64,000 nucleotides of DNA from Alphaproteobacteria bacterium. Lineage in GTDB: Bacteria; Pseudomonadota; Alphaproteobacteria; UBA828. A model generated the notes under the pieces. That model was not told the origin of the DNA and did no database searches. It saw only the letters and a list, made by a program, of their open reading frames with translations. Where the stretch lies: positions 800,001-864,000 of the forward strand of contig CBDEFM010000002.1 of the NCBI GenBank assembly GCA_965237415.1. The letters run 5' to 3'. Shown piece after piece: positions 6,754 to 59,535 of the stretch (position 1 is its first letter; each line of letters begins with the position of its first letter). Both the position numbers and the translations under genes were made by a program.

Positions 6754-6799
6754 CGGATGTCGACCTCGCTCCTGTTCACGGGATGCATTGCGGGCACGG

Positions 6800-33700: not shown

Positions 33701-36700
33701 TCGCCGCCACGATCGGATGGTCGTCGTCCACCACCGTCAGCACCAGCTCCGCATGCGTGCCGGGCACGTAGCCCGCCGGCAGCGGGCCGAAGGCGAACGT
33801 CAGCGTCTCGTCCGGCTCGTCGAACGTGTCCTGCACCGCCGTCACCGTGAAGCTCTTCGACGTCTCGCCCGCGTTGAAGGTCACGTTCGCCGGCACGCCA
33901 ACAACCTCGACCGTTTCGGGCCCCGCGGCCTCGATCGGTACCGTCACCGTCGTCCCCACCGTTGGTGCGATGGCCAGCGTCACCGTCACCGCGATCTCCT
34001 CGCCCTCATCGACCGAGAGCGCCGCCGCGGCGAACGACACCGCCACGCCCACGATCGGCGTCACCATCACCTGGGCCTCGGCCCCGCCGCCGGCGACGTT
34101 CACCGCCCGCACCTCGAAGGTGTGCACCATGTCGTTGACGAGCCCCGTGAAGGTATGGCTGGTGGTGTTCGCGTCGCTGTCCTGAATCGTCGCCCAGGCG
34201 CCGAACGAACCGCTCCCCACCTGCAGCCGGTACTCGTAGCGCATCACCGGCTGGCGATGGTCCGGCACGGACGGCAGCGGCGCCTGCCACGTGAGCCGCG
34301 CCTCGGTGTCGCCCGCCTGCGCCATGAGATTTTGCGGCGCCGAGGGCGGCGTGTCGTTGTCGAGCACCGCGACCGTCGCCGAGGAGGCATCCGCGTCCAG
34401 CGTATGGAGGGCGAACGCCGACACGTCCGGCTTCAGGGTGAAGACCACCGCTCGCGGCTCCGTCTCCATCGCCGTGTTCGCGAGGGTCCCGAACGTCCTC
34501 GTTGCGGAGGTCACGCCCTCCTCGAGCAAGACCGAACTCGCCGGCGGGCCGCTCAGCACCCCGGCCGGGTCGGCGATCTCGAATGACACAGATATTGCCC
34601 CCCGATAGGCCTGCGTCGCCGTCACCGTCACGTCGAAGCCGCTGCCCTCCGTCACCGCCGCGGGGTCGGCCGAGATCGACAGCTCCGGCACCGGTTCGTC
34701 GTCCCGGTAGCTGACCGTCACGCCGCCGATCCGCGTGCCGAGGAACCGCCCCTCGAGTTCGCCCGAGACCCGCGACAGGTACAGATTGTCCTGGCGCGCG
34801 CTCACTTCCAGTTCGCCGCTCGTCCCCATGGCCGGGATGGTGATCACGTGCACGTCCCCGGCGCCCTGCAACGCGTACGCGGGCCACTCCGTTCCGCCCA
34901 CCGGGGCTTTGTTCCAGTAGAGCGTCACCGTCTGCTCGGTGCTGAACCGCACGTTGTTGGTGATCGTCACCCTCGCCGTGGCCGACGCCCCGCCCTCGGT
35001 GAACTGCGTGACCGCGTTGCCGCCCGAGTCGGTCAGCGTGAAGCTCCACTCCGGGTCCGGCGTCGTCCTCATGGCGGTCGCGGCGTCGCCGTTGCCGATG
35101 CCGTTCACCGCCCGCACCTCGAAGGTGTACTCCGTGTCGGCGTCGAGCCCGGTCACATCCAAGCGAATCTCGTTTGCGCCGCCCGGGACGTCCGTCCAGG
35201 TGGTCGACGGGGGGACCGAGCTGCCCGCCGCGTAGCGGTACTGGATCTTCTCGATCGGGCTGCCGTTGTGCCACGGCGTGACCCATGAGAGCTCCAAAAT
35301 GTCGGCGGCCAACCGCACAGGTGCCGTCGAAATTTCGTCAAAGTCCGCGCTGAGGCCCCCCGGCGCCTCCGGGGCGGTGGCCGCGAGGTTGTTGGTGACC
35401 GTCGTTTCGGCGAGCGATACCGCCTCGTTGTTCGCCGCGTCCTTGATCGGGTTGCTCCCCGGCTTCGCATAGGCGACGGTCAGGGTGTCGCCGGGGCGGA
35501 AGGCCGAGGCGAGCGTGAGCGTGACGGCGCTGCTGGAAATCCCGACCGTGTCCACCCCGCGGCCGACCCCGCCGACCTCGACGGTGAAGGCGGACGTCGC
35601 CGGCTGCGAGCCCGTGTCGAGCACTTCGCTGTAGGTCAGCACGACCTTGTCGGTGCCGCTGGTCCCCGCGCTCACAAACGTCGGCGCGGTGTTGTCCACG
35701 AGGCTGACGGCCATCGAGGACACGGCGTCGATGCCGTTGCCGGGCACGTCGGTGACGGCGTCCGCGTCCAGCTCCACCGTGATATTGGTGTCGGTACTCA
35801 GAAACGCCGTCATCAGCGTGATCTCGACCTTGGTGCTGTCGGTCGAGTCGATCGCGGCCCCCGTCGTGGTCTGGGTCGTGCCGCCCTTCTTCACCGTGAT
35901 CTTCATGCGGTCGACCGTGCCGATGGCCTCGCTGAAGGTGAGGACCACCTTCGTGAGGTCGCCTGAGGCGTTTGCGCTCGACAGCGTCGGCTTCACGCCG
36001 TCGATCTTGTGGTTGGAGTCAACCGGGAGGGCGGAGTGATCCCTGTTCACCCGCTGGCCGAGCGGTCCTACCACATATGTTACTGAGAAGAAGTCCGAGA
36101 AGGCGTTTGCGTTGACGGCTATCCCGTCGGTGTCGTACCAACCTTCGTCGACTGTGCCTACGCACACGAGCGTCTTCGTGTTCGTGCCGATCGCGCACGC
36201 GGCCTCCGGGTGGTCCTCCCCTGCGGTGTCCGCCGCGTAGTCCGTTTGATACGTGACGTATCCCGGTGTCCTGCTGGTGTTGCTTCCTCCGAGGCTCAGA
36301 TCCTTGTCGAAGGTTAGCGTGAACTCGATGTCGTCGCCGATGATGTAGGTCTTGTCGGTGCCAGGGTCCGAGGTGATCGCGACCGACGTGATTTCCGGCG
36401 GCGGTGTGGGTGTGGCGTTCGCCGACCCTGCGAGGCTCACCCCCGCGTCGCTCTTAGCCTGGATCTCGACGGTGTAGTCCGTTCCGTTGATGAGGCCTGT
36501 GACCTCGAAGTCGTTGAACGCATCTGCGCCGCTGAGTCCAGTGTCCGTCCAGGTCGACCATGTCGCTTCTGCGCCGGCGGTGGTCTTGTAGCGGTAGTCG
36601 TAGCCGGTGATGGATGACGTGCCTTCGGCCGGCATCGGCCAGTTGAGCACGAGCTTTGTGTCAAGTCCCTGTGCGCTGACCACGGGCGTGCCCGGCACGG

Positions 36701-38216: not shown

Positions 38217-38244
38217 GACGCGCCCCGGCGGACATGAAGAGGGC

Positions 38245-38549
38245 GCTCGGCTCGGCTCGGCTCGGCTCGGCTCGGCTCGGCTCGGCTCGGCTCGGCTCGG
38301 CTCGGCTCGGCTCGGCTCGGCTCGGCTCGGCTCGGCTCGGCTCGGCTCGGCTCGGCTCGGCTCGGCTCGGCTCGGCTCGGCTCGGCTCGGCTCGGCTCGG
38401 CTCGGCTCGGCTCGGCTCGGCTCGGCTCGGCTCGGCTCGGCTCGGCTCGGCTCGGCTCGGCTCGGCTCGGCTCGGCTCGGCTCGGCTCGGCTCGGCTCGG
38501 CTCGGCTCGGCTCGGCTCGGCTCGGGCTCGGCTCGGCTCGGCTCGGCTC
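38245..38549. repeat. Pentanucleotide microsatellite (GCTCG)n, ~60 units with one extra G at 38525
   Basis: 56 perfect units at 38245-38524, one G, 4 more units, then GCTC. Confidence 0.97.
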
Positions 38550-38550
38550 T

Positions 38551-38559
38551 ATTATAGCA
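38551..38559 (-). promoter_or_regulatory. Extended -10 sigma70 promoter element (TGcTATAAT) facing the adhesin gene
   Basis: Perfect TGnTATAAT in high-GC DNA, directly abutting the microsatellite. No clear -35. Confidence 0.6.
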
Positions 38560-39136
38560 CCGCCAGGCCCAACCCCCGGCAGAATTCGGGAATCGACCAG
38601 CCCCCGAACGCCGCATGCCAAGGCGACGCGCCGCATCCCCTGTCCGCCGGCCCCGTTCGCCGACGTATCGCGCGCACGCTCCACCGCCTTCTCACCGTCA
38701 ACGAGGTTCATCTCTTCACTCCAGCCGGCCGTGCCGATGTCCTGCTCTTCTCCGGTCGGTTCAGCCGGTTCGAGTGCCGGTGCGGAACGCCGCCCAACCT
38801 GCCTCAAGGCCTGCGCGGCCACTCCTCATTCCACGCACTAGGCGGGGGGACCACGCGGGAACCTGCTGAACGCCTTCGCGCTATTGTTCCCGGTTGCGTG
38901 AAGAATTCTAGATGGTTGTTTTTCCGACCCTAGACAGAATTATTTTGGGCGTATGGCGCCGCCAATTGCGTGTTTGACGCGACCCATTTCAGGCACGCGC
39001 AATACCGGCATCGCGCCGCCGTTCCCATACCGCAAGGACACATCGAGAGCGCCTTCAAGGCGCCGGGACCGACAGGCCAGAGTGCCGAAGGCACTCCCGC
39101 GCAGCCGACCGTCGCCGCGGCCCGCCGCCCCCGGAC

Positions 39137-44811: not shown

Positions 44812-45419
44812 GCCGTCTGAACCGCCTTGCGGCGGTCGCGGCCCCGGCCGCGAAGCGGCTGCCGCCGCTTGGGGGGATTGAATGGACTGCTCCACGTCGT
44901 GAAGTCCGATCGTGCCACACGTGCTCGCTACAGCAACCCTGCGGGTCCTCCGCTCCGCTACGGCCTGGCCCAAGAAGCTCTAGGGCGGGCCGTGAAAGTC
45001 GCCGACCGAGAAGTTGGGCTTACGCGAACTCTCCGGCACCTCGCGTGTGGCGCGCCGGCCCCTGAAGCGCGGGGCCGCCGCCTCGGCCCGGCGCTCCCTG
45101 GAGCCCGGCACGCGGCAAGCAGCACCCAGCGCCATACCAGGCTGCGCCGTCGTGCATCCCTCCAACGACCCAGTCCTTGGCGGGTGCTACTCACCGCGCA
45201 CCTCAAATGCCAACTGGAAACCAGTCCAATCTCGACGACCCCGCGCCGGGCCTCCCCTCGCTGCACGACGCCCAACTTCCGCACCAAGATCGGCGACTTT
45301 CCGCACCAACCCCCGCCCAAGAGCTTCTAAGGCCAGGTGCTTCCGCTGCGCGCGCGTGTCCCGAAAGGACATCACGACGGGGCACAGGGTCCCGGAGGAT
45401 GACAGACAAGGAGATCGTC

Positions 45420-46337
45420 ATGATCGACACCACCGCAACCCAGACCGCATCGCCCACCGCCGCCGTCTGCGAGAGCCTCGCCCTCTTCGGCGCAAGCCCG
45501 GAGCGCGGCGAGCTCGACAGCCGCGAGGTCTGGGACGAGGACGACGCCATCGACGCCCTCGGCGAGGCCATCCGCGTCATCGTGGACGGCGTCACCGTCG
45601 AGGGGACGCAGCTCGCCGACGAGCGCGAGGCCCTGATGTGGGGCTTCGTGAACATGCTGCACTCGCAGGTCGCCCGCCTCGACCGCACCGTCGACCGGAT
45701 CGTGCCGGAGATGCGCGACCTCGAACGCGCCCAGGACGGCACCGAGGTGAAGACGTGGGAGTTGCAGCTCCAGACCGACCGGGCACACAACCTCGGCGAC
45801 CGTAGGGACGCGTTCGAGAAGATGCGCGATACCGCCGCCGAAGCCTACCGCGTCCACACCGGCGATGTCTGGCGCCCGCGCCACGGATCGCACGCCAGCC
45901 AGACCGGCAAGCTCACCTCGGCCGCCATCGACGCCCGGGACTTCCAGCGCGCACGGAAGGACCGCGAGACCCGGGCGCACCTGCCGGAGGGAACCCTGGT
46001 GGCCATCACCGGCGGCAAGCAGGTCATGGATGCGGACTCGGTCTGGACCACGCTCGACCGGGCGCGCGAGAAGTACGGCGACATGGTTCTGCTGCACGGC
46101 GGCGGTCCCGGCATCGAGAAGATCGCGGCGAGCTGGGCGGAGGCGCGCGGCGTCGATCAGGTCGTCTGCCGCCCGGACTGGAACGCCCACGGCAAGGCCG
46201 CCCCCTTCCGGCGCAACGACGAGCTGCTGAACCTGCTCCCGAAGGGCGTCATCGCCTTCCCCGGCTCAGGCATCACCGGGAACCTCGTCGACAAGGCCCG
46301 CCAGCTCGGCATCCCGGTCATGAACGTCGCTGCGTGA
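45420..46337 (+). CDS. DUF2493 (SLOG/YspA-like) domain protein
   Basis: Helical N-terminus, then VAITGG, LLHGG.PG.E.IAA.WA, PDW..HGKAAPFRRN.ELL, IAFPGSGIT.NL.DKAR; RBS AAGGAG. Confidence 0.85.
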   Translation: MIDTTATQTASPTAAVCESLALFGASPERGELDSREVWDEDDAIDALGEAIRVIVDGVTVEGTQLADEREALMWGFVNMLHSQVARLDRTVDRIVPEMRDLERAQDGTEVKTWELQLQTDRAHNLGDRRDAFEKMRDTAAEAYRVHTGDVWRPRHGSHASQTGKLTSAAIDARDFQRARKDRETRAHLPEGTLVAITGGKQVMDADSVWTTLDRAREKYGDMVLLHGGGPGIEKIAASWAEARGVDQVVCRPDWNAHGKAAPFRRNDELLNLLPKGVIAFPGSGITGNLVDKARQLGIPVMNVAA

Positions 46338-47840: not shown

Positions 47841-50800
47841 ATGGTAGCCACCCTCGCCCAGGCGGCCTCGGCCGCGTACTACCTGGAGAGCCAGCGCTCG
47901 TTCCGCCATCCCAACGAGTACTACACGGCGGGCGAGGAGCCGGACGGGGTGTGGTTCAACCCCAAGGGACTGCTCGGCCTCGAGAACGGCGGCAAGGTCG
48001 ACAGCAGCGACTTCCACCGGCTCTATCACGGCTTCGCGCCGGACGGCTCCAGCAGACTCACCAGGAACGCCGGCAGCGACCAGCGCTCTCCGGGCGTGGA
48101 CATGACCTTCTCGGCCGACAAGAGCGTGTCCGCGCTCTGGGCCATCGCCGATCCCGCGCTCCGGGCCCGGATCGAGGAAGCCCACAACGACGCCGCCCGG
48201 GTGGCGCTGGAAGAGACGGTGTTCCGCTACTGCGCGTATACGCGGATCCGGGACAGGGAGGGGCGGATCAGGGCCCTGCCTGCCGATATCTCGGTGGCGA
48301 TGTTCCAGCACGGCACCAGCCGGGAGAACGATCCGCAGCTTCATACCCACTGCGTCATCTTCAATGCAGCCCTTACCCGCGAGGACGGCAAGTGGCGGGC
48401 CATGCACCAGTACCCGGTCTACAGCTGGGCCAAGGCCGCGGGCGCGGTCTACCGCAATGCCCTGGCCTGGAACCTCCGCGAGAGCCTGGGCATCCGCATG
48501 GAGCAGTACGGTCCCGATGGCGGGCTCACCCGCATCGAGGGCATGCCGGAGGACCTGCAGGTCTTCTGGTCGAAGCGGCGGAAGGCGATCGTCGCCAAGG
48601 CCGGAGAGCTGGGCATTCCGTCGCTCGGCAACGCCTCGCGCATGGCCGGCGTCAACAAGCTGACGCGGGCGGGCAAGTCGCACGACAACGACCCGGAGGT
48701 GCGACACCGGCGCTGGCACGAAGAGGCCGAAGGCTTCGCCGAGCGCGAGGAGCTGATCGCCTCCGTGACAGGGCATGAAGTGAAGACCACGCGGGAGGCG
48801 ATCCGGGAGCTGACTGGCCGGCTGGACGATCTTCCCGCCCACCTTGCCCGGCAAGAAGCCGTGTTCCGCCGCCCGGACATGGTGGAGGCGGCGGCCAATG
48901 CTGCGGCAGGCCTGATCGGCCCTGAAGCCTTGAGAACCGCCATCGAGCGGCTTCGACGCAACCCCGAGATCGAGCGACTGGAGCCGAAGAAGCCGACAGC
49001 GGAGTCGCTCGCGGGAATGGCCCATACCGAGATCTATTCCACCCGCCACAATCTCGGGCTGGAGCAGGCGGTCAAGGACATGGCAGAAGCCATGGCCGCC
49101 GATACCGGCCACGGGCTGCCTGAAGGGGCGGTCGAGGAGAAGGTGGAGACGCTGCTGGAGCAGGGCTATCCGCTGAGCCAGGAGCAGTCGCTGGCGATCC
49201 GCCATGCCACCCTGAAGGGCGGACGTGTTGCGGTGATCGAGGGCGCGGCGGGCTCGGGCAAGACCACCACGCTCAGGCCCATCACCGACCTGCACAAGGA
49301 GCACGGCTACGAGATCGTGCCGACCGCCGTCGCCTGGCGCACGGCGGTGGCGCTGGGAGACGACTGCGACGCACGCGCCTACTGCGTCGACAAGCTTCTC
49401 AAGCTGGCCGCCAAGGAGCAGGTCGAGATCGGCCACAAGACCCTGATCGTGGTGGACGAGGCGGGGATGCTATCGACGCGGCAGGCCCATCACATCCTTC
49501 AGCTCTCCGAGCGCCACGGGGCCAAGGTCGTGTTCGCCGGCGACACCCGGCAACAGCAGCCGGTGGAGGCAGGTCCGGGGCTGAGGCTGATCCGCGACGT
49601 CGCCGGCAGCGTCCGCGTCGACCGCATCAGGCGCCAGAAGGCGGACCTGGAAGACGTGCTGGTCCATGTCCACAAGGAGACGACCGAGCAGGCCCGATTC
49701 CGGGCCGGGCTTACGAACCCTCAGGAGCACGACGCGATCCTCGCGGACTACGAGGCGATGGAGAGAAAGCCGGTATTCACGCCGTGGCAGGTGGCGGTCT
49801 CGGAAGCCTTGAGGGACGGGGAGGCGGAGAAGGCCATCGAGGCGTGGCATCTGCGCAACCGGCTCCATCTCTGCCACGACGAGGAGAAGACGCTCACCCG
49901 TCTGGTGGATGACTGGGAGCGCCATGTGCGCACACACCCCGACACATCTACCGTCGTGCTCGCGCGCACGAAGGCCGAGGGACGGGCGCTGTCGTGGCTG
50001 ATGCGGCAGCGCGTGCTTGCGCGGACCTCCGACGCGAAGCGCGCCGTCATCGAGGTGAGCCGAGACCTGGACGGGCGGCTGACGGAGCCGCTGGAGATCG
50101 CGGTGGGCGACCGCATCCGCATCGGCGCCACGCAGTGGGAGAAGCAGCTCTTTAACGGCACAGTGGTCACGATAGAGGACCTGGAGGTCCGGCCCGCGGG
50201 TGATACCGCGGTCACGCGCAAGGCCCGCAATAGGACCGCGGCAGGGCGGCAGCCGGACGCGGACCGGTCCGAGCCTGAGTTTTGCGTCCACATCACCGCA
50301 CGTACCGACGACGGGCGGCGCGTGATCTTCCGCCATGACGAGATCCGTGACTGGCACGACAACATCCGCCTGGACTACGGCTATGCCATGACCATCGCGT
50401 CGGCCCAGGGCCTGACCGTCGACCGGGCGTTCCTTCTCGCAGACGACCGCCCGGCGCGGGAGACGATCTATCCCGCCGCCACCCGGCACCGCGAAGGCCT
50501 GGACGTCTACGTCAACCGGTCTCCCATCGTCTTCGACATCGCGGACAGCCGTCCCGAGGACGAGGCGGAGCGGCCGGTGCTGGACAGCGATATCCGTGGG
50601 TATCTGGCCGAGCGCTGGTCCCGCTCGCAGCCCAAGGAGGCGGCGCTCGATTACGTCTCCGACGGTATGTGGCGCGATGCGAGGGAGAGTGCACGGGCCG
50701 GCATCGCAACTCGCGCAGCCAGACCGGCCGCCATAAGGCATGGCGGTCCCGGGGATGAACAGCGAGAAGCGTCCGAGGCACAGGCGGCGGCGAACGACAA

Positions 50801-51974
50801 CGCGATCGTGCGCATCGCTCAGGAAATCCGTCACGCGGTCAACGGCTGGCGCCACGGAGTCGCCGTGGACGCGTTCGCGGCGGAGCGCGCGCAAGTGCTG
50901 GCCGCCTGGGACGAGCTGCGCGAGCGGACGCGCAACGAGGGCGACGCGGTGGCGCTGAGCCCCGCATTCCGCGAGACCCTCGACCGGCACGGCGCGCTCA
51001 TGAAGCAGGCCGCATCCTTCCGCCGTCGTCCGCAGGTGTTCGAGCGGCTGCTGGCCGAGCGCGCCGGGATCGGCGAAGGCGAGATCGAGCAACTCGGAGA
51101 CGAGCATGCCCGTGCCGGCAGGTATCTCAGGTCCGTCAAGGCCAGGACGTCACACGCAGCACGGCAGGAAGCACCGCACGAAGAGCCGGGGATCCTCGAG
51201 GCCATCGCAGCCGAAGCCGCCGCTCCCTCCGCCGGGCCCGCTCCCGAACGGCACGCTCCGTCCCGGACCGTGGAAGAGCTTGCCCCCGGCCCGGAGCGGG
51301 ATACCCGTCCTGACTGGAACACGCTCTACAAGGAGCTGCAACGGGACTGGAACGATCTCGTCGCACGCTCAGAAGAGCCCGATCTTCCGCTACTCCTGAT
51401 GGACGGGTACGACGCACTGATCCACCGCGTCCGCGCCCTCTTCGATCATCCCGACCTGTCCGAGAGGGCACATAGCGTGCTCGACCAGCTCCTCGACTAC
51501 CATGACGAGGAGACCGAGACCCGCCAGACCGCCGAGGGCTATCTGGCTTTGGCGGAGCGTCATGTCGAGGCGTACAAGGCCCTTGAGCGGCAGGCCAGCG
51601 AGCGCGGCATTCCCGTTGTCCGCCTCGACGCCTGGCCTGAATGGCGCGAGGCTGCCGTGATGCTGGCAGCCACTGGCAAGGCCATCCTCTCCAATGATGA
51701 GAACTATGGCGCCTATCTCGACGCCATCACGATTGGCAAGGCCCGTGCACGACTTACGGTCGAGCAGCTGACCAACCGGCTTCGCGAGAACCGCACCCGC
51801 ACACCAAGGCCGGAGGTACGACAGCCCCGGCGCGAGCCGACGCCCAAGCAGGAGCAGGGCTTCGCTCATTTTCTCGATGACCGCGAGCAGCTCAGAGAAC
51901 TACGTGATAAGGCCGAACAGCGCGACCGCAACCGCAGTAGGCACCTCCGGAGGAGCCGAGGCCTAAGCCTGTGA
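47841..51974 (+). CDS. MOB-F (TrwC-type) relaxase fused to a RecD-like helicase
   Basis: Two Tyr pairs (AAYY, EYY), DMTFSADKSVS, HUH motif HGTSRENDPQLHTH, WSKRR..I; helicase motifs GAAGSGKTT, VVDEAGM, GDTRQ, GYAMTIASAQGLTVD. Confidence 0.95.
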   Translation: MVATLAQAASAAYYLESQRSFRHPNEYYTAGEEPDGVWFNPKGLLGLENGGKVDSSDFHRLYHGFAPDGSSRLTRNAGSDQRSPGVDMTFSADKSVSALWAIADPALRARIEEAHNDAARVALEETVFRYCAYTRIRDREGRIRALPADISVAMFQHGTSRENDPQLHTHCVIFNAALTREDGKWRAMHQYPVYSWAKAAGAVYRNALAWNLRESLGIRMEQYGPDGGLTRIEGMPEDLQVFWSKRRKAIVAKAGELGIPSLGNASRMAGVNKLTRAGKSHDNDPEVRHRRWHEEAEGFAEREELIASVTGHEVKTTREAIRELTGRLDDLPAHLARQEAVFRRPDMVEAAANAAAGLIGPEALRTAIERLRRNPEIERLEPKKPTAESLAGMAHTEIYSTRHNLGLEQAVKDMAEAMAADTGHGLPEGAVEEKVETLLEQGYPLSQEQSLAIRHATLKGGRVAVIEGAAGSGKTTTLRPITDLHKEHGYEIVPTAVAWRTAVALGDDCDARAYCVDKLLKLAAKEQVEIGHKTLIVVDEAGMLSTRQAHHILQLSERHGAKVVFAGDTRQQQPVEAGPGLRLIRDVAGSVRVDRIRRQKADLEDVLVHVHKETTEQARFRAGLTNPQEHDAILADYEAMERKPVFTPWQVAVSEALRDGEAEKAIEAWHLRNRLHLCHDEEKTLTRLVDDWERHVRTHPDTSTVVLARTKAEGRALSWLMRQRVLARTSDAKRAVIEVSRDLDGRLTEPLEIAVGDRIRIGATQWEKQLFNGTVVTIEDLEVRPAGDTAVTRKARNRTAAGRQPDADRSEPEFCVHITARTDDGRRVIFRHDEIRDWHDNIRLDYGYAMTIASAQGLTVDRAFLLADDRPARETIYPAATRHREGLDVYVNRSPIVFDIADSRPEDEAERPVLDSDIRGYLAERWSRSQPKEAALDYVSDGMWRDARESARAGIATRAARPAAIRHGGPGDEQREASEAQAAANDNAIVRIAQEIRHAVNGWRHGVAVDAFAAERAQVLAAWDELRERTRNEGDAVALSPAFRETLDRHGALMKQAASFRRRPQVFERLLAERAGIGEGEIEQLGDEHARAGRYLRSVKARTSHAARQEAPHEEPGILEAIAAEAAAPSAGPAPERHAPSRTVEELAPGPERDTRPDWNTLYKELQRDWNDLVARSEEPDLPLLLMDGYDALIHRVRALFDHPDLSERAHSVLDQLLDYHDEETETRQTAEGYLALAERHVEAYKALERQASERGIPVVRLDAWPEWREAAVMLAATGKAILSNDENYGAYLDAITIGKARARLTVEQLTNRLRENRTRTPRPEVRQPRREPTPKQEQGFAHFLDDREQLRELRDKAEQRDRNRSRHLRRSRGLSL

Positions 51975-52211
51975 CTCGTCAGATTCGTTTTCCGCCACCT
52001 CTACCGAACTGTCTGACAGCGCTTCCTCAATCCGCCGCCCTACGCTTCGCCTATACATCCCACGCTGCGGTTTCTAAAGATCGGAACACTAAATTAACGA
52101 TTGCTACTTCTTCCCGACCACGACGTCCTCTAGTACAGGGTTCGATGCAGTACTGGCCGCCGCTCCGCTTTTCGATCCGATAATACCAAGCCGACCCCTC
52201 TAACCTGCATG

Positions 52212-53117
52212 TTAATCGCGATTTCTAAATCTATCCATACACGCGCAAACTAACAGGACTGCCAAATATGGCACTGCCTTGCTAATTTCCTGCACCGGAT
52301 CAGATACAGACTCTCCGGAGTTGATTTCAAACACAAGGCTGCCAATGCCCTGCTTTGCTTCTACTGAAACGTACAGATCCATGGCATATGTTCCTAGCAT
52401 TGCCAATAGAGTAATCGCAAAGACCCGTCTCCAGAAAAAAGCCGGGTTATGCAACAAAGTGAATACAAAAGTAAGCAAACCAACACCACCCGACACCAAC
52501 AATCGTGCTGAGGACGTCCATTCCAGTGGACCCAACGAGAACCAACTTATCACTGCTCCAATCAACGCAACTCCTAATGACATACATAACCAAACTAGAG
52601 ACGTGTTTTGTCTCGCAATCTCACCAGCCACAATCCTTTCTCTGTGACGAGCGGACATTTCTACTTGGAGCAGATCTTGAAAACGAACACTAGCAGCCCT
52701 AATCCTATTGAAGTCCGTCGCCGAGACCCGCAACGCCGCGACCTCTCCACTCCGCGCTATAACCGTTGCTGACCGCTTTTTTCCCAGTTCAATGGCAGCC
52801 ATCTCACCGACTTGATTAGGTGCTTCTCGCCTTGTTCTGTTTCCCGATTTAAAAACAACATCTACTTCTCCCGACAACAGAAACAAAACAACATTATCTT
52901 GCTCTCCCCGTCGAATAATTCTATCCCCCCTTTGGAAAAATACTGTTTCGCCTACGCCCATCAGACGACTAACAATTGTTTGGTCTCCGTTCACGGCAGG
53001 GTTTGTCGACAGCGTGTCGGCAATTCGAGCGTATCCGCTATTTCCCGCAAACGTGCCACGTAGCGTGGTCTCTGGGCCGAGGCCTATTGCCCGGCGTAAT
53101 TTCGCCGCCCAATACAT
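52212..53117 (-). CDS. Cyclic-nucleotide-binding domain plus ~4 TM helices, putative cNMP-activated membrane effector
   Basis: F..G..II..GE.DN...FLLSGEVDV...VGEMAAIE..KRSATVIA (CNBD phosphate-binding cassette), followed by four hydrophobic segments. Confidence 0.85.
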   Translation of the reverse strand: MYWAAKLRRAIGLGPETTLRGTFAGNSGYARIADTLSTNPAVNGDQTIVSRLMGVGETVFFQRGDRIIRRGEQDNVVLFLLSGEVDVVFKSGNRTRREAPNQVGEMAAIELGKKRSATVIARSGEVAALRVSATDFNRIRAASVRFQDLLQVEMSARHRERIVAGEIARQNTSLVWLCMSLGVALIGAVISWFSLGPLEWTSSARLLVSGGVGLLTFVFTLLHNPAFFWRRVFAITLLAMLGTYAMDLYVSVEAKQGIGSLVFEINSGESVSDPVQEISKAVPYLAVLLVCACMDRFRNRD

Positions 53118-53974
53118 TTTTCTACCTCGTCGATGTTTTCAATGTGCAGCAGAAAACTGCTGCTGTTTCTTATTTTTCCGTCTTGTGTCTTGCGAGGATC
53201 GAATCCATAATGACGAAGATAATAGAACAGCATCGCTTGCCGTACACTAAGTCGCAGATGGCCGTTGGTCATTCCGTACTCAAATTCAAGCCGCTCTTTC
53301 TTGTGTTGATCAATTGCGGGATCGACCTTGAGAATCACGTCCACGTTGTTGTGCCAAGCCGTATCTACTGGGATCTCGCAGGCCGGCTTATCTCGCAGTT
53401 CTGTCCGCTCGATTCGCGACAAAACAAAATCGGAATAGCGCGTCCGCTCGAGGTCGTAAGCTCGCATGTGCCATCTGTGACCATCGCTGGCGATGGCGTG
53501 TGGTAACAACATCCGGAATCCTGTACTTCCCGAGCTCAAGGATATGTAGCGCGCATGCAAACAGATTCGGGAGCGCATGCTTTGCAGCACATGCATGAGG
53601 ACACGAGAAGATATTTTGCGCGATTGGGCCGAGACCGCGTCGAAGACCGGAATCGACTTAGCCCAGATCTCTCCTTCCCGACGGTAGCCACAGCTCAAAA
53701 TGTCTAGATGCATTAGATATTCGAAGGCCTCTCCCGTTATAAGAACCGGGCGAAACTTAGAAGTGGGTACGTATGCTTTCTGCCTGGGATCGTAAAGCAT
53801 ATTGTCCGGACAAGCATCCATATAGCTGGTGAGATCGATTGTGGCCTGCTGCAAAGAGATCGAAAATTGATCCTGCAGCTTCTTGCGCCCCACTGACCCC
53901 TCCCAGTGGAGTTGAAACTCGATGAACTCGAAACGTCTACGTATGCTTACCTTCAGATCCTGCAATTCCGACAT
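53084..53974 (-). CDS. WYL-domain transcriptional regulator (CapW/BrxR-like)
   Basis: wHTH (RR.EFIEFQL.WEG.V.R..L...F.IS.QQA..D...Y), WYL (Y.SLS......R.L.PHA...DG.RWH.RAY....Y.DFVLSRI), DTAW, C-terminal YGM..G.L.L.VR.AM..Y.L. Confidence 0.92.
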   Translation of the reverse strand: MSELQDLKVSIRRRFEFIEFQLHWEGSVGRKKLQDQFSISLQQATIDLTSYMDACPDNMLYDPRQKAYVPTSKFRPVLITGEAFEYLMHLDILSCGYRREGEIWAKSIPVFDAVSAQSRKISSRVLMHVLQSMRSRICLHARYISLSSGSTGFRMLLPHAIASDGHRWHMRAYDLERTRYSDFVLSRIERTELRDKPACEIPVDTAWHNNVDVILKVDPAIDQHKKERLEFEYGMTNGHLRLSVRQAMLFYYLRHYGFDPRKTQDGKIRNSSSFLLHIENIDEVEKCIGRRNYAGQ

Positions 53975-54002
53975 CTCGTGTCACCCCAGCACGTCCTCCG
54001 CT

Positions 54003-54041
54003 TTTATAGCATATTGACATTTTCTAGAAAAGCTTTATTAT
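54003..54041. promoter_or_regulatory. Back-to-back divergent sigma70 promoters with a central palindrome (candidate WYL operator)
   Basis: Plus strand TTGACA (54014-54019), N16, TATTAT (54036-54041). Minus strand TGcTATAAA (54003-54011). Palindrome TTTTCTAGAAAA at 54020-54031. Confidence 0.65.
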
Positions 54042-54113
54042 ATGGAAGGATTGGGCGTGCCGTGCGCTGCAACCGTATCACGGGGCGCGTACTGATGTTG
54101 AAAGGAGTAAGCA

Positions 54114-55718
54114 GTGGCTTGGGGGCAAGAGCAGGCGCAGAGGCGCATCAGAAAGCTGATCGGGGAAGCCCCGACGATCGACGTACATCGGTTTTCTGAG
54201 GAGTACATGCCGCTTTACGAAGTGCGCGCGGCCCAGCTGACGGCTGCTGGGGAGCGTATAGCACCACCGCTGTTTGACCTCACGAAGGGTTCGGCGGTGT
54301 TAGTCGACACAGTCCAGATATACATCGCCATTACCAACTACGACGAGTATCGCATCGAAGAGGACTCAGAAACCGAGACGTCGCATGAGCGGGCCCTCCG
54401 GTTCCTGCATCTTTACTATAGTGCTTGCGACCGCGTAGCTGAAGTGACTCCTGCACAGCGGGTCGATTTCCATGGTAGCCGGATGCACGCTGTTGTAATC
54501 GATCGGTCCGGTGCCGGCATCACACGACACAGTATCGCCGACGCCCTGGCTTTCGTCCGAGATTTTCGAATAGTTGCCGAGCGAGCAAACAGCGAACTCG
54601 CGAGAAGCGCTTTGACAGCGCGATTTCGCGTTGGAATCGACGCGGGAACTTGTGTTGCAATCAATAACGGGACCGGGATAGAGCAGGAACCCATGTTTCT
54701 TGGTAGCGCGGCAAACTATGCCGCCAAGCTGGCAGAGGGCGATCAGCCGGGTATCTTCCCGTCCGATCGCGTGAGGGCCCTCGTGGGCCTGGAGGAGCTG
54801 GGGGTTCTCGAGTTCGCGCACGGTCTCGACGAGGCTTCCATTGATCAGGTCATCGCAAGTCGCGATGAAGGCGGGCGGGCAGCTCTCCCGGCGTTTGCCC
54901 ACACCGCAAGCACCGAATCCATTGTCGAGACCTGGCGGGAGGAGATTGTCAAGGCGGAGGTATTTGATCCTACAATTCCCAAATTCTCGTTTCATCACAA
55001 GGAGCCGCCCCTAAGCGACATCGACTATCGGGATCTATCGCCGAGCAACTCTATTAGGATGCCATTAATTTCAGTGTTTGCCGACCTTTCTGGCTATACC
55101 CAATACGTTGATGAAGCGATCACGAGCGGTCGTATCGGAGAAGCAATCCGGGCTCTGTACGTAATTCGTGAGGAGCTTCAGAATGTCGTGGAGGAGGACT
55201 TTGACGGGCGCAAGGTGCGCTTTATTGGAGATTGTATTCACGCTCTGCTGGCAGAAGGCACGAGATCAGAGACGGACGACCGCAAGAGTGTCATTCAAAG
55301 TTTTGAGTGTGCCGGTGGCCTTCGCTCTTCTTTTTTGATCTGTCAAGAGGAGCTCACCGGCCTCGAGGCGCTCGGCCTCACCATCGGCATTGAGTACGGT
55401 TGGACGCCGGTCTCCCGCATAGGAATTCGTGGCGTAAGGTCCGTCCGACTTGCTTCCAGCGGCGCAACAGCTACCTCCGAGCAAATGCAACGCGACTGCG
55501 GTGACAATGAGGTCAAGTTCGGTCCAAACGCAATGACCCATATCCCTGACGCGTATCATGATCTCACCAATGCCTCTGGCGTGGCAGCCGCTTTGACGTA
55601 TGACGATGTAGTCTTGTGCTTTGCCCCTCAGACCGCTCCAGCAACGACGCGACGCCATGTTCGCGCGCACACACCGGCTGACGGGACGGTGGCCAGGGCA
55701 CACTTCAAGACCATATGA
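54114..55718 (+). CDS. Tandem (two-domain) class III nucleotide cyclase
   Basis: Domain 1: QIYIAITNY, VDFHGSRMH, FRVGIDAG, FLGSAANYAAKL. Domain 2: SVFADLSGYT, VRFIGDCIH, IGIEYG. GTG start with AAAGGAG RBS. Confidence 0.88.
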   Translation: MAWGQEQAQRRIRKLIGEAPTIDVHRFSEEYMPLYEVRAAQLTAAGERIAPPLFDLTKGSAVLVDTVQIYIAITNYDEYRIEEDSETETSHERALRFLHLYYSACDRVAEVTPAQRVDFHGSRMHAVVIDRSGAGITRHSIADALAFVRDFRIVAERANSELARSALTARFRVGIDAGTCVAINNGTGIEQEPMFLGSAANYAAKLAEGDQPGIFPSDRVRALVGLEELGVLEFAHGLDEASIDQVIASRDEGGRAALPAFAHTASTESIVETWREEIVKAEVFDPTIPKFSFHHKEPPLSDIDYRDLSPSNSIRMPLISVFADLSGYTQYVDEAITSGRIGEAIRALYVIREELQNVVEEDFDGRKVRFIGDCIHALLAEGTRSETDDRKSVIQSFECAGGLRSSFLICQEELTGLEALGLTIGIEYGWTPVSRIGIRGVRSVRLASSGATATSEQMQRDCGDNEVKFGPNAMTHIPDAYHDLTNASGVAAALTYDDVVLCFAPQTAPATTRRHVRAHTPADGTVARAHFKTI

Positions 55719-56512
55719 GTTCAATTGACCAGCTCAATAGGGCAGTACCAAGTTGGGCGACAATCGCAAATCGGATTGGAAACTACTTGCACGTTATTGC
55801 CCGCGCACCCATGCCTAGTGGTGCATTCGGCCGGACCTACGGATTGGTCATCAAATCAACCAAAGACGATAAAGCACAGGTCAGTGAAAGCACCGCTCAA
55901 GCACTGCTTCCTAATTGTTGCCTCGAACGCCACATTAATTCGGACGGCACATTCTGCCTGCATCTTGATTCCACTAAACCTATTTTGAATTCTGATAGCG
56001 CCATCATTTGGTGGGTTAGTCTCCGAGATTACCTAAATCATCAGGACTATTCATCCAAACGGCGCAAGTGGCCTATGCATGCCCAACTGAGTCACGGTGA
56101 CGCAGCTCTAGTTCAACTGCGGATGGAAAAACTCGCAGAGCCGTTGGCGTGGAAACAGGAAGTACTTACTTCGATTTTTCGAGGCAAAGGATGGCTTGCA
56201 AATGAGTTGCCGCGTCGAAGCAAAGACAAGTCTAAACTCGTTAATGCACGAGGGCCTTGTCCTAGAGGATGCCGTACCAAACATCACCCCTATACACGTC
56301 AGGCGTGTCAGCGCGTTAAGTGCACTCCAAACTGCAAGAAGCAGCATCGCCAGATCCTTCGGGTAAATTGTCCAAATAGAGCACTAGTGGAAGAGCTTGC
56401 ATTACTTGACAATTTGAGACGTGAATCGGAGGAAAGCGTCGTTGCGGACCTTCGTTCCAAAGGCGTGCAGTGTTGTAGAACTATGGATGACTGTCCATTG
56501 GCCGACAAATAG
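55715..56512 (+). CDS. E2/UBC-like protein with a Cys-rich C-terminal domain
   Basis: LP..C.ERHINSDGTFCL (E2 HxN..G..C catalytic motif), WW..L..YL..Q, C-terminal CPRGC...C..C...C...C...CC.....C. ATGA overlap with the cyclase. Confidence 0.8.
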   Translation: MSSIDQLNRAVPSWATIANRIGNYLHVIARAPMPSGAFGRTYGLVIKSTKDDKAQVSESTAQALLPNCCLERHINSDGTFCLHLDSTKPILNSDSAIIWWVSLRDYLNHQDYSSKRRKWPMHAQLSHGDAALVQLRMEKLAEPLAWKQEVLTSIFRGKGWLANELPRRSKDKSKLVNARGPCPRGCRTKHHPYTRQACQRVKCTPNCKKQHRQILRVNCPNRALVEELALLDNLRRESEESVVADLRSKGVQCCRTMDDCPLADK

Positions 56513-56769
56513 ACCGCGAGTTGGCACTGTCCGCTAGCACTTGCATCATTGGCTACGCGGCCACGTCGACGGAGTCGCCAGGATCGCAATTGGCGTCACG
56601 CCTGACATCACCACCGTCAATCTGTGTAGTTTGCTATTTTCCAAGTATGGACTATTTTAATTTGCCCGCTACACAGCTAGATCAGCGACGTGTCCTGCCG
56701 GGTTAGCGCACTTTGTTCCGGCGTCGCACGACAGTGCTAACGCCAACCTTTATCCAAGCGATTTCTGGC

Positions 56770-57360
56770 GTCGACTAGGGACAGCTCGGTGAACAGATCC
56801 CGCCGACGCTCGAACAGACGCTCCTCGATCTCGTCCTTCACACACCGTGGCGGGAGATCGCCCTCTGCAACAGCCTCACGCTCGTTGCGCAGCCAAGCCA
56901 TCGCTCGATAAAGGTGGTGCAGGCGCAAGCCGGCCCCGCCGAGGATGACGTAGTCGACCATCCACCTCCGCACGAGCAGTCCGAGCCGGAGACGAACAGA
57001 CAGTGGAGCACGCTGATGAACACCGCCCGCTCGACGGCGAACTCGAAGCCGCGCTCACCCAGTGACTGCGTCACCACGCAGCCCGGCACTAGCCGCTCCC
57101 AAGGCCGACCGAACAGCAAAGGCCTGCCGATGCGGGTTCAGACAAGACGGCGCGCCGCCAAGTGGGATAGCTCCATCGCCCGCTCGCAACGACCCGCCGG
57201 CGAGCCAATCACGCGATTGAGCTTGCCGCTGGCGTGCAGCACATCCATGCGGCCGAGCGCACGAATCGTGCGCTGGCGTACCTCCTTGCCCTCGCGGATG
57301 CTGTCCGCGAGGTAGTGGTATCGGTGTCCCCGAGCGCCATTTTCGCGGACAGATATCGAA
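56770..57360 (-). pseudogene. IS1634-family transposase remnant (frameshifted N-terminal part)
   Basis: Fragments in several frames: Y.YL..S.REG..VRQRTI..LGR.D; FEFAVERAVF..VLH.LFVSGSD; LHHLYRAMAWL; KD.IEERLF..RRDLF. Confidence 0.75.
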
Positions 57361-57650
57361 GCGTAGTCCCGATGGCCAAGCCCCAAAACACGCGGACTCC
57401 GCTCGGCATCCCAAGATGCTTCACAATTCTATTTCAAGTAGCGGGAAACCCGACTGCAATATCCCTCGCTTCAACAAATTGGCCAAACTTTCCAACCCTA
57501 AATCCGGAATCCAATGTTGAACTTTGTCTAGACACTCCCGGGGAAAGAATAACCGCGCCTTCCAGTCTTTCAGACTGCCAAATTTACGTACCGCCTCAGT
57601 TCAACCGATGCATCTACGCGGCGCACATGATCTGATTTCCAATTAATTCT

Positions 57651-58346
57651 TTACTTCAATGACCACCAATACGAAGAGCGATATATTCGACGATTATTTT
57701 GCGCGGTCCACTTTCGCTCCTCCCACATATTCTTACCGTTGCTAAACTTCGTATCGTCGTTCATGCTACCGTATACTCTATCTGTAATCCAAGTAGCATA
57801 TGAATCCGACATTGCTGACAACTTCGCGGCATGATTCGCCGCTCTCCCAATCCATACTATATCGTTATTGTTGCGAATGCCTGCTTTTGCAGCCATGACC
57901 TTTGTGCTATCCACCCCCGTTACATGTTTCATCACGTACTTGGTGTTTTCGTAATGCTTCTTTAGCATAGGCTGTATTACGTTCCTTACTGCCCAGTTTA
58001 TCTTTAATGCAGTTCTCACCGCGCTCGTGTTCTTGCTTTCTCCAATGAATATCCCCATTACGCGGTCGCCATCAAACGACCTAACCTCCCCTCCCTCGCT
58101 TCGGATTAGTCTAGTAGCGCACTGAAGGAATGCCTTGTAGTTTTCCGCGGCAAACCAATCCTTATAGTTATCAACAAGCATGGTCGATGCTGACAAATCA
58201 GTATAGAGGATTGTAGCTTGTAAATCGACTGCCTCATTTCCGTGCGATAAGTCGACGTCTTCGGGAACTTTCCTGCCATCTCGGCGTCGCCACTTCTCAA
58301 CATATATGCCGCTCACTTGCTTCTGTAAGTCTGCCTTCAACCCCAT
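57651..58346 (-). CDS. pycC: Pycsar PycC-like pyrimidine (probably uridylate) cyclase
   Basis: R.VP...D...GN.AV.L.ATILYTDL..ST.LVD, RSFDGDRVMGIF.G..KNT.AV..ALKINWAV, GIRNNND.VWIGRAANHAAKLS, IYRS.YWW. Confidence 0.82.
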   Translation of the reverse strand: MGLKADLQKQVSGIYVEKWRRRDGRKVPEDVDLSHGNEAVDLQATILYTDLSASTMLVDNYKDWFAAENYKAFLQCATRLIRSEGGEVRSFDGDRVMGIFIGESKNTSAVRTALKINWAVRNVIQPMLKKHYENTKYVMKHVTGVDSTKVMAAKAGIRNNNDIVWIGRAANHAAKLSAMSDSYATWITDRVYGSMNDDTKFSNGKNMWEERKWTAQNNRRIYRSSYWWSLK

Positions 58347-58439
58347 GATCCGTTTTCCTATTGTAACGCTAGTTTACTGGATCGAACATCCGCCAGCCTC
58401 AGGAACCAAGAAGCGTTCAAGCGCTCTGCATGGACCGTT

Positions 58440-58760
58440 CCGTTGGACGATTCGACAAAGGTATTAACGGTCGAGTTTCGCGGCCATGCGAAGTCCAGGG
58501 TCACACCGTATGTCCAAGCCCAGAGATCGAGTTCCATGCGGATTAACTCGGACCCGCTGTCGGCTCGCGGATGCTTCTGCGCATGTCATGGACTCGGTCG
58601 AATTTCTCCAGCGTCACGACCACATTCGATCCGCGGTAGGTCTCGCATATGTCGATTGCCGGCGACAGGCGGTTGAAGGCATCCACGATCGTCAGGGTGC
58701 GGATGCGCCGGCCGTCGAACAGCTGGTCCGAATTGAAGTCCATCGCATTGACCTCATTCG
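58440..58760 (-). pseudogene. IS3-family integrase-core remnant
   Basis: MDF.SDQLFDGRRIRTLTIVD.F.R.SPAI, with degenerate downstream fragments. Confidence 0.75.

Positions 58761-58801: not shown

Positions 58802-59535
<734 letters not shown>

Follow-up and report, generated by a model that had tools for sequence, protein, structure and literature searches.

Two-domain cyclases already form part of the described Pycsar repertoire. Clade A PycC proteins consist of two consecutive cyclase domains, PaPycC (Protein Data Bank (PDB) entry 6YII) is the clade A structure, the dimer of a single-domain PycC superposes on one PaPycC chain, and PycC clades A-D convert UTP to cyclic UMP (cUMP) (PMC11224242). 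Given these tandem-domain clade A proteins the pseudo-heterodimer layout is not new, and a two-domain arrangement with one active site has been published together with the solved structure of a relative. Conjugation enzymes have also been reported beside Pycsar cyclases. In one work, and in that work only among those searched, the term "type II Pycsar" is given to a cyclase with an E2-E1 fusion (10.1101/2024.11.21.623953). A "Pycsar-like-4" subclade, a term found only in a further preprint, was linked to E2-like genes and WYL modules, and the terms "tandem," "two cyclase," and "clade A" are absent from that preprint (10.64898/2026.08.12.744502). In E2-CBASS the cGAS tail enters the catalytic pocket of a stand-alone E2, which cleaves off the residue that follows a conserved Gly and makes first a thioester and then an isopeptide link, chemistry that requires a His near the Cys (10.1101/2022.05.25.493364); the SmCdnG-SmE2 complex is the subject of an mLife paper (PMC12948482). 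Pycsar is nowhere mentioned in the bioRxiv version of Ledvina et al. Here we examine a putative tandem-domain Pycsar cyclase and its E2 neighbor in a stretch of 64,000 nucleotides from an alphaproteobacterium of the UBA828 lineage (GCA_965237415.1, contig CBDEFM010000002.1, positions 800,001 to 864,000), the whole of which is referred to as the window.

The tandem cyclase alone changes nothing that is known, as such cyclases and a crystal structure of one have been published. It is the universal pairing of this cyclase with a conjugation enzyme, together with a tail that is specific to the type of partner, that points by analogy to E2-only priming of the E2-CBASS kind, and this is the main new lead from the locus. 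No experimental test of such priming was found for any Pycsar system in the searchable literature. We also found no literature describing an E2-Pycsar or PycC-E2 pair, and none on E2-ntca (PF20298) or E2-Crich (PF20272), the two Pfam families matched by the window E2.

The tandem cyclase and its divided active site

The gene at 54114-55718 on the forward strand is exactly one open reading frame (ORF) of 534 amino acids (aa) with a GTG start, a start codon that is backed by a nearly invariant M1 and an invariant W3 among 82 aligned homologues. A first-pass annotation had quoted six cyclase motifs here, and all of them are present in the translation of this one ORF: YIAI (aa 70-73), FHGS (aa 119-122), AANYAAKL (aa 199-206), FADLSGYT (aa 322-329), IGDC (aa 371-374), and ATATSEQMQ (aa 451-459). 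The gene and its parts are as follows.

54114-55718 (+), tandem-domain (clade A type) Pycsar cyclase PycC, 534 aa, GTG start (ORF, PADLOC, PDB, and Foldseek)
54282-54788 (+), domain 1, the C2-like half (about aa 57-225), in which A72 and S122 replace the metal aspartates and N201, K205, H120, and R123 are kept (alignments and profile pairing)
55026-55613 (+), domain 2, the C1-like half (about aa 305-500), with both metal aspartates (D324 and D373) retained and degenerate residues (A453, Q457) in place of Asn and Lys (alignments and profile pairing)
55629-55715 (+), C-terminal tail (aa 506-534), predicted to be disordered, in which an RAH motif recurs (predicted local distance difference test (pLDDT) below 50)

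The PADLOC PycC profile PDLC00762 matches aa 1-517 of the cyclase with an E-value of 5.3e-172, followed by PDLC02366 (E 5.2e-162), and the sole solved relative by sequence is PaPycC (6yii_A, E 2.1e-66, aa 57-507). An AlphaFold2 (AF2) model built from 82 sequences has a pLDDT of 87.5 and a predicted template modeling (TM) score of 0.86, and is less confident at the linker (aa 254-263) and the tail (aa 506-534). Its top Foldseek match is again 6YII (E 3.8e-45, TMq 0.81, TMt 0.92, root-mean-square deviation (rmsd) 2.6 Å, 511 columns, 31% identity), and this fold match places two cyclase homology domains in one chain with dimer-like packing. The next matches (ranks 2-37) are the two-domain cores of mammalian adenylyl cyclases (ACs) AC9, AC8, and AC5 and of human soluble AC, at TM scores of about 0.45-0.53, whereas single-domain cyclases such as CyaC and BcPycC (7r65_A) span only one half of the model. 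The single-chain pseudo-heterodimer proposed from the letters alone is thus borne out by superposition on the single chain of 6YII, with two-domain mammalian cyclases ranking next. With a full-length PycC profile match, homology to 6yii_A, two consecutive cyclase domains, and an adjacent effector that binds cyclic nucleoside monophosphates (cNMPs), the protein is, on profile and model evidence, a clade A Pycsar cyclase that carries two class III cyclase-like halves in one chain.

The catalytic residues are divided between these halves. A half-against-half profile alignment, weak in itself (hhalign E 0.022, probability 2%) and used for residue pairing only, pairs A72 with D324, S122 with D373, H120 with I371, and R123 with C374. 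The claim that domain 1 has lost both metal-binding aspartates therefore stands at both positions, with the adjustment that the second lost position is, by this pairing, S122 within FHGS. The transition-state pair read in AANYAAKL stands for its first member, N201, but the partner is the Lys K205 and not an Arg. The assignment of catalytic residues to the C1 and C2 domains of mammalian adenylyl cyclase is well established, and the residue split seen here is mammalian-like, as had been suggested: the C-terminal half gives both metal aspartates and the N-terminal half gives the Asn and Lys. In class III cyclases the base-reading residues lie on the half that supplies the Asn and Arg, beside the position of the second aspartate, and on this basis H120 and R123 would belong to the live site.

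Conservation of this division was followed in two sets of proteins, which overlap in part and are not independent. A homologue search returned 479 proteins at E ≤ 1e-5, and of the 120 listed, 115 full-length proteins (500-570 aa) were aligned and 5 were dropped as shorter than 500 aa. The second set comprises 81 tandem cyclases, one from the window and 80 from genome loci, with identities as low as about 37%. Among the 115 homologues D324, D373, N201, H120, and R123 are each invariant (115/115) and K205 is kept in 114. Position 122 is G, S, A, or P and never D in these proteins, D occurs at position 121 in 2/115, position 453 is T, A, S, C, I, or V and never N, and the six commonest residues at position 72 (A, S, G, N, T, and R) account for 109/115. 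The same five residues are invariant in all 81 tandem cyclases, where K205 is found in 79; position 72 is never D (Q in 26, N in 22, A in 12, and others), position 122 is S, P, G, or A and never D, position 453 is never N, and position 457 is K in just 15/81. The two metal aspartates thus sit on one half and the Asn and basic residue on the other across the tandem cyclases. The catalytic asymmetry between the cyclase halves is real and under selection, and the complementary half-sites of the first-pass annotation are kept in both the 115 homologues and the 81 tandem cyclases.

The E2 partner and the cyclase tail

Directly downstream of the cyclase lies a stand-alone E2 gene, the ATG of which overlaps the cyclase stop codon (ATGA), pointing to translational coupling. 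In a minority of related loci this place is taken by an E2-E1 fusion.

55715-56512 (+), stand-alone E2-like protein, 265 aa, with a Cys-rich C-terminal domain (Pfam and PADLOC)
About 6480-8480 in each of the related loci L053-L055, L057-L061, L064, and L067, E2-E1 fusion (Prok-E2_B plus ThiF)

The window E2 is matched by E2-ntca (PF20298, E 9.4e-20), E2-Crich (PF20272, E 1.2e-11), and the PADLOC E2 profile PDLC00878 (E 8e-98). Across an alignment of 38 sequences R72-H73, F80-C81, and H127 are invariant and the C-terminal part is Cys-rich, so that the E2-ntca match comes with a catalytic Cys and nearby His. The structure model (pLDDT 94.4) agrees with an E2 fold in that its top 50 Foldseek matches are all E2 enzymes, although distant, eukaryotic, and weak (E 0.02-0.12). 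A search of PDB sequences with the E2 profile gave nothing relevant at E ≤ 1, the only match (E 0.94) being spurious.

A stand-alone E2 lies directly 3' of the tandem cyclase in 69/80 related loci, and also in one further locus (L044) where the copy is cut by the contig end. The other 10 carry an E2-E1 fusion of about 600 aa (Prok-E2_B plus ThiF; PADLOC E1-E2 PDLC00836) directly 3' of the cyclase, identified by tblastn in 10/10 and confirmed by Pfam in 5 and by PADLOC in 4. An E2 or E2-E1 gene therefore follows the cyclase directly in all 80 loci. The cyclase tails differ with the partner. Cyclases paired with an E2-E1 fusion end exactly in R-(H/N)-A (10/10), whereas in those paired with an E2 only the chain runs on for 2-5 residues past an RAH-like motif (RAH, APY, or QPH). 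In the window cyclase the last RAH of the tail lies 4 residues from the C-terminus, and the tail "AH" has exactly 4 residues behind it in 98 of the 115 homologues and 3 in a further 9. The 80/80 loci thus yield a rule in which an E1-containing partner goes with a free R-H-A end and an E2-only partner with extra residues past an RAH-like motif, a rule that mirrors the split between E1E2/JAB and E2-only systems in CBASS.

A model of the cyclase-E2 complex reached a median score of 0.77 (runs 0.82, 0.77, and 0.74), against 0.00 for the best of three controls; the mark applied to such scores is reached by 58/80 solved complexes and 2/110 mismatched pairs, counts that apply here only approximately, since our own alignments served as input. 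The runs share at least 38% of contacts and the partner pLDDT is at least 81. The confident part of the predicted interface joins cyclase residues 1-6, 405, 478-504, and 526-534 with E2 residues 33-37, 70, 73-76, 80-84, 101-131, and others, and within it the tail residues 526-534 are predicted to contact E2 70, 73-76, 80-84, and 118-129. The model supports binding of the cyclase by the E2, with the conserved tail predicted to lie against the Cys81/His73/His127 cleft of the E2. Residues open to mutation are thereby defined, namely C81, H73, and H127 of the E2 and 526-534 of the cyclase.

Effector, further cyclases, and genomic setting

The genes around the cyclase-E2 pair, with the corresponding fusion genes of related loci, are listed below.

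54014-54041 (+), promoter-like site in the divergent intergenic region, TTGACA, 16 nt spacer, TATTAT (11/12 consensus matches)
53084-53974 (-), WYL-domain protein, 296 aa, probable regulator, divergent from the cyclase (Pfam WYL E 1.8e-8; PADLOC WYL E 9e-12)
52212-53117 (-), effector, 301 aa, with a cNMP-binding domain (aa 59-140) followed by hydrophobic segments (Pfam cNMP_binding E 4.5e-10; PADLOC PDLC00730 E 8e-107)
57651-58346 (-), second, single-domain PycC, 231 aa, convergent with the E2 gene (PADLOC PDLC00766 E 1.9e-101)
L047:3864-4985, L043:3800-4990, L054:3838-4986, and L059:3825-5000, fusions of a cNMP-binding (CNB) domain to a cyclase in related loci (PDLC00734)
47841-51974 (+), TrwC-type relaxase/helicase, 1377 aa, just upstream of the low-GC block

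The promoter-like site lies 73 bp upstream of the cyclase start and is weak, the number of such sites in the region being not above shuffled expectation. The WYL gene occupies the same place in 32/80 related loci, and its end is overlapped in the window by the effector gene. Hydropathy places the effector segments at 171-198, 204-224, and 232-250, and 61/80 related loci have a CNB effector no more than 5 kb from the tandem cyclase. The best PADLOC profile of the effector, PDLC00730, is labeled "TIR," a label that looks misleading as Pfam finds cNMP-binding only and the C-terminal half is hydrophobic.

The short PycC at 57651-58346 has no effector gene of its own alongside, and in the 1.1 kb separating it from the E2 gene all ORFs are short and lack a Pfam match. 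Two short ORFs (57138-57386 and 58543-58743) were considered as insertion-sequence remnants flanking the short cyclase and were dropped, having no Pfam match. A short PycC is found within 5 kb of the tandem gene in 36/80 loci, 33 of which have just one CNB effector. In 15/80 loci an ORF matched by both cNMP-binding and cyclase profiles, that is, a CNB-cyclase fusion, lies directly upstream of the tandem cyclase, and all four of those tested match PADLOC PDLC00734; such a fusion could give positive feedback on the signal. No second cyclase lies within 5 kb in 33/80 loci, some of which are ended by contig edges, while over-long ORFs in two (L033 and L077) may hide a short cyclase. In the related loci the longest frame was taken as the ORF, which gives excessive lengths in some of those with high GC. 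The presence of several cyclases in one locus fits relay or amplification, and also fits a role of the tandem protein mainly as a sensor.

GC content is 0.45-0.59 across about 52000-58500, compared with 0.64-0.70 upstream, the change being from about 0.68 to about 0.50 where the defense genes begin, and this drop together with the adjoining TrwC relaxase suggests a cargo island on a conjugative element. Just past the short cyclase is an overlapping pair of a PIN-domain toxin and a Phd/YefM antitoxin (58802-59532, -), and upstream of the relaxase is a 386-aa protein with a YAcAr (YspA/SLOG-related) domain (45177-46337, +). Elsewhere, the ORF list of the window holds a 4683-aa open frame (24771-38822, -) that contains a 1930-aa frame on the opposite strand.

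Mechanism, alternatives, and comparison with known systems

We consider it probable that the ORF encodes a signal-producing two-domain Pycsar cyclase with one composite active site and an E2-controlled tail, acting in abortive infection. The two class III cyclase-like halves would pack head-to-tail within the chain to form one working site, to which domain 2 would supply the metal-binding D324 and D373 and domain 1 the transition-state N201 and K205. H120 and R123, flanking the lost aspartate, may read the base, and the mirror site would be catalytically dead. The predicted product is a 3',5'-cyclic mononucleotide, most likely cUMP by clade assignment, which the membrane effector encoded at 52212-53117 would read through its cNMP-binding domain, thereby killing or arresting the infected cell. 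Control of the cyclase would most likely be exerted through the C-terminal tail, which is predicted to be disordered. In the complex model the E2, the translation of which would be coupled to that of the cyclase, receives this conserved tail, with RAH plus four residues, in its Cys81/His73/His127 cleft, and by analogy with E2-CBASS it may clip this tail and link the cyclase covalently, thereby priming it.

Several points weigh against this account. No Pfam family matches the window cyclase at E ≤ 0.1, PF00211 (Guanylate_cyc) included, and NCBIfam likewise returns nothing; most of the cyclase homologues listed carry a precomputed PF00211 match, whereas the window protein is assigned to class III by its PADLOC profiles, its PDB match, and its fold. 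The cyclase halves can barely be aligned by sequence, as the hhalign values above indicate, and their duplication rests on fold. The complex score is the model's own confidence and not a measurement, although a score derived from a memorized structure seems unlikely, since the PDB contains no complex detectably like it. The conserved residue of the tail is His or Ala and not the Gly of E2-CBASS, and no equivalent of the E2-CBASS acceptor Lys was identified in the window E2. AlphaFold3 models of E2-linked "Pycsar-like-4" cyclases are reported to prefer ATP (10.64898/2026.08.12.744502), and the product of the window cyclase, a candidate member of that group, may therefore be other than cUMP. A second cyclase gene is present in 47/80 loci and the tandem enzyme need not be the sole or main source of signal. 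Finally, the PDB record of 6YII bears the title "adenylyl cyclase-like ATP-binding protein," and the name given there to the chain is "Transcriptional regulator."

The last two points lend themselves to a different explanation: the tandem protein would bind NTPs as a sensor or regulator without being a productive cyclase itself, and the signal proper would be made by the single-domain PycC at 57651-58346 or, in relatives, by the CNB-cyclase fusion. The names given to 6YII would suit such a role, as would the short cyclases and the fusions beside the tandem gene, the single CNB effector in most of the short-cyclase loci, and the suggestion of relayed or amplified cNMP signaling in multi-cyclase Pycsar loci (10.64898/2026.08.12.744502). 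However, one would hardly expect a protein that only binds NTP to retain five catalytic-site residues without exception and K205 in 79 of the 81 tandem cyclases, a CNB effector is present in most of the 33 loci that show no other cyclase within 5 kb, and clades A-D are stated to make cUMP from UTP (PMC11224242). On the strength of the invariant catalytic set of the composite site, and of the many loci with no other cyclase, we regard a pure sensor as improbable. It is far harder to see the E2 gene as an unrelated neighbor of a plain two-gene cyclase-effector Pycsar with an incidental tail motif. Published Pycsar systems are described as a cyclase plus a receptor/effector (PMC11224242), but an E2 or E2-E1 gene follows the cyclase directly in every related locus, the cyclase stop codon of the window shares bases with the E2 start codon, tail type strictly follows partner type, and the complex model passes its controls, which together leave mere neighborhood very improbable.

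The first-pass annotation had proposed that the degenerate pocket could be an allosteric or phage-sensing site. Such a site would be the regulatory input of the enzyme, in the manner of forskolin binding by membrane AC or bicarbonate binding by soluble AC. From the fold match to 6YII and to the membrane and soluble ACs, a dead pocket pseudo-symmetric to the active site is bound to be present, and by symmetry it would be lined by positions 72 and 122 of domain 1 and 371, 374, 453, and 457 of domain 2. Two of these, I371 (77/81) and C374 (80/81), are conserved among the tandem cyclases. However, both flank the catalytic D373, so that their conservation needs no second function, whereas positions 72, 122, 453, and 457, none of which adjoins a catalytic residue, are the most variable of those examined. 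The pocket also has no known ligand, and the conserved, partner-specific C-terminal tail offers a better-supported route given the universal E2 or E2-E1 pairing, the tails that follow the partner, and the complex model. We therefore think regulation through the pocket rather unlikely. Control of the composite site through the tail leads to a wider and more tentative idea: as every two-domain PycC examined is paired with a ubiquitin-like conjugation enzyme, these proteins may as a class be the type II Pycsar enzymes. In the E2-only version of the window, which lacks an E1, the E2-ntca protein would be a transpeptidase that binds the disordered tail, trims about four residues behind RAH, spends the energy of the broken bond on attaching the cyclase covalently either to itself or to a target, and thereby primes the composite site. 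Second cyclases, single-domain or fused to a cNMP-binding domain, would where present amplify the signal onto a shared effector.

Compared with its nearest solved relative, the window cyclase resembles PaPycC of Pseudomonas aeruginosa in being a single chain of two cyclase-like domains, alignable over window aa 57-507, and in the same division of labor in the alignment, with "ADxxGFT" and "FIGDC" in domain 2 and "ANxAAKL" and a "VDFH..R.H" strand in domain 1. The two proteins share 31% identity, and PaPycC differs in that the first of the two metal positions in domain 1 is still Asp ("YADI"), where the window protein has Ala and Asp occurs in 0/81 tandem cyclases. The paper on the 6YII structure is reported to describe a pseudo-heterodimer with bound ATP. 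With the mammalian membrane AC C1/C2 pair and human soluble AC it shares the principle of two domains that give one active and one degenerate pseudo-symmetric site. However, the structural match to these enzymes is loose (TM about 0.45-0.53 with a large rmsd), the domain order is reversed with the metal-binding half C-terminal in the window protein, a Lys stands in place of the transition-state Arg, and membrane domains are lacking. We infer that the duplication in tandem PycC is probably independent of that in mammalian AC.

With regard to the conjugation enzyme, the window operon shares with type II Pycsar the coupling of a Pycsar cyclase to a ubiquitin-like conjugation enzyme, and 10/80 related loci have that very form. 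It differs in being E2-only, with no ThiF/E1 domain, and in a cyclase tail with extra residues past the motif rather than a free R-H-A end. The window system resembles the E2-CBASS of Serratia marcescens (cGAS/CdnG), where a nucleotide-signal synthase is likewise followed by an E2-only gene without E1 or JAB, the C-terminal tail of the synthase is conserved with few residues past the motif, and the E2 has a conserved His near the catalytic Cys. The synthase of the window is a class III cyclase and not a CD-NTase, its tail motif is RAH plus 4 residues as against Gly plus 1, and its E2 belongs to another Pfam family (E2-ntca), has a Cys-rich C-terminal domain, and lacks a PDB relative detectable by sequence. 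In E2-CBASS the tail is seen in the E2 catalytic pocket in a published structure, and in the window system it is placed at the E2 Cys/His cleft by a model only. By analogy, this comparison suggests that C-terminal conjugation may be a general priming route for unrelated signal synthases.

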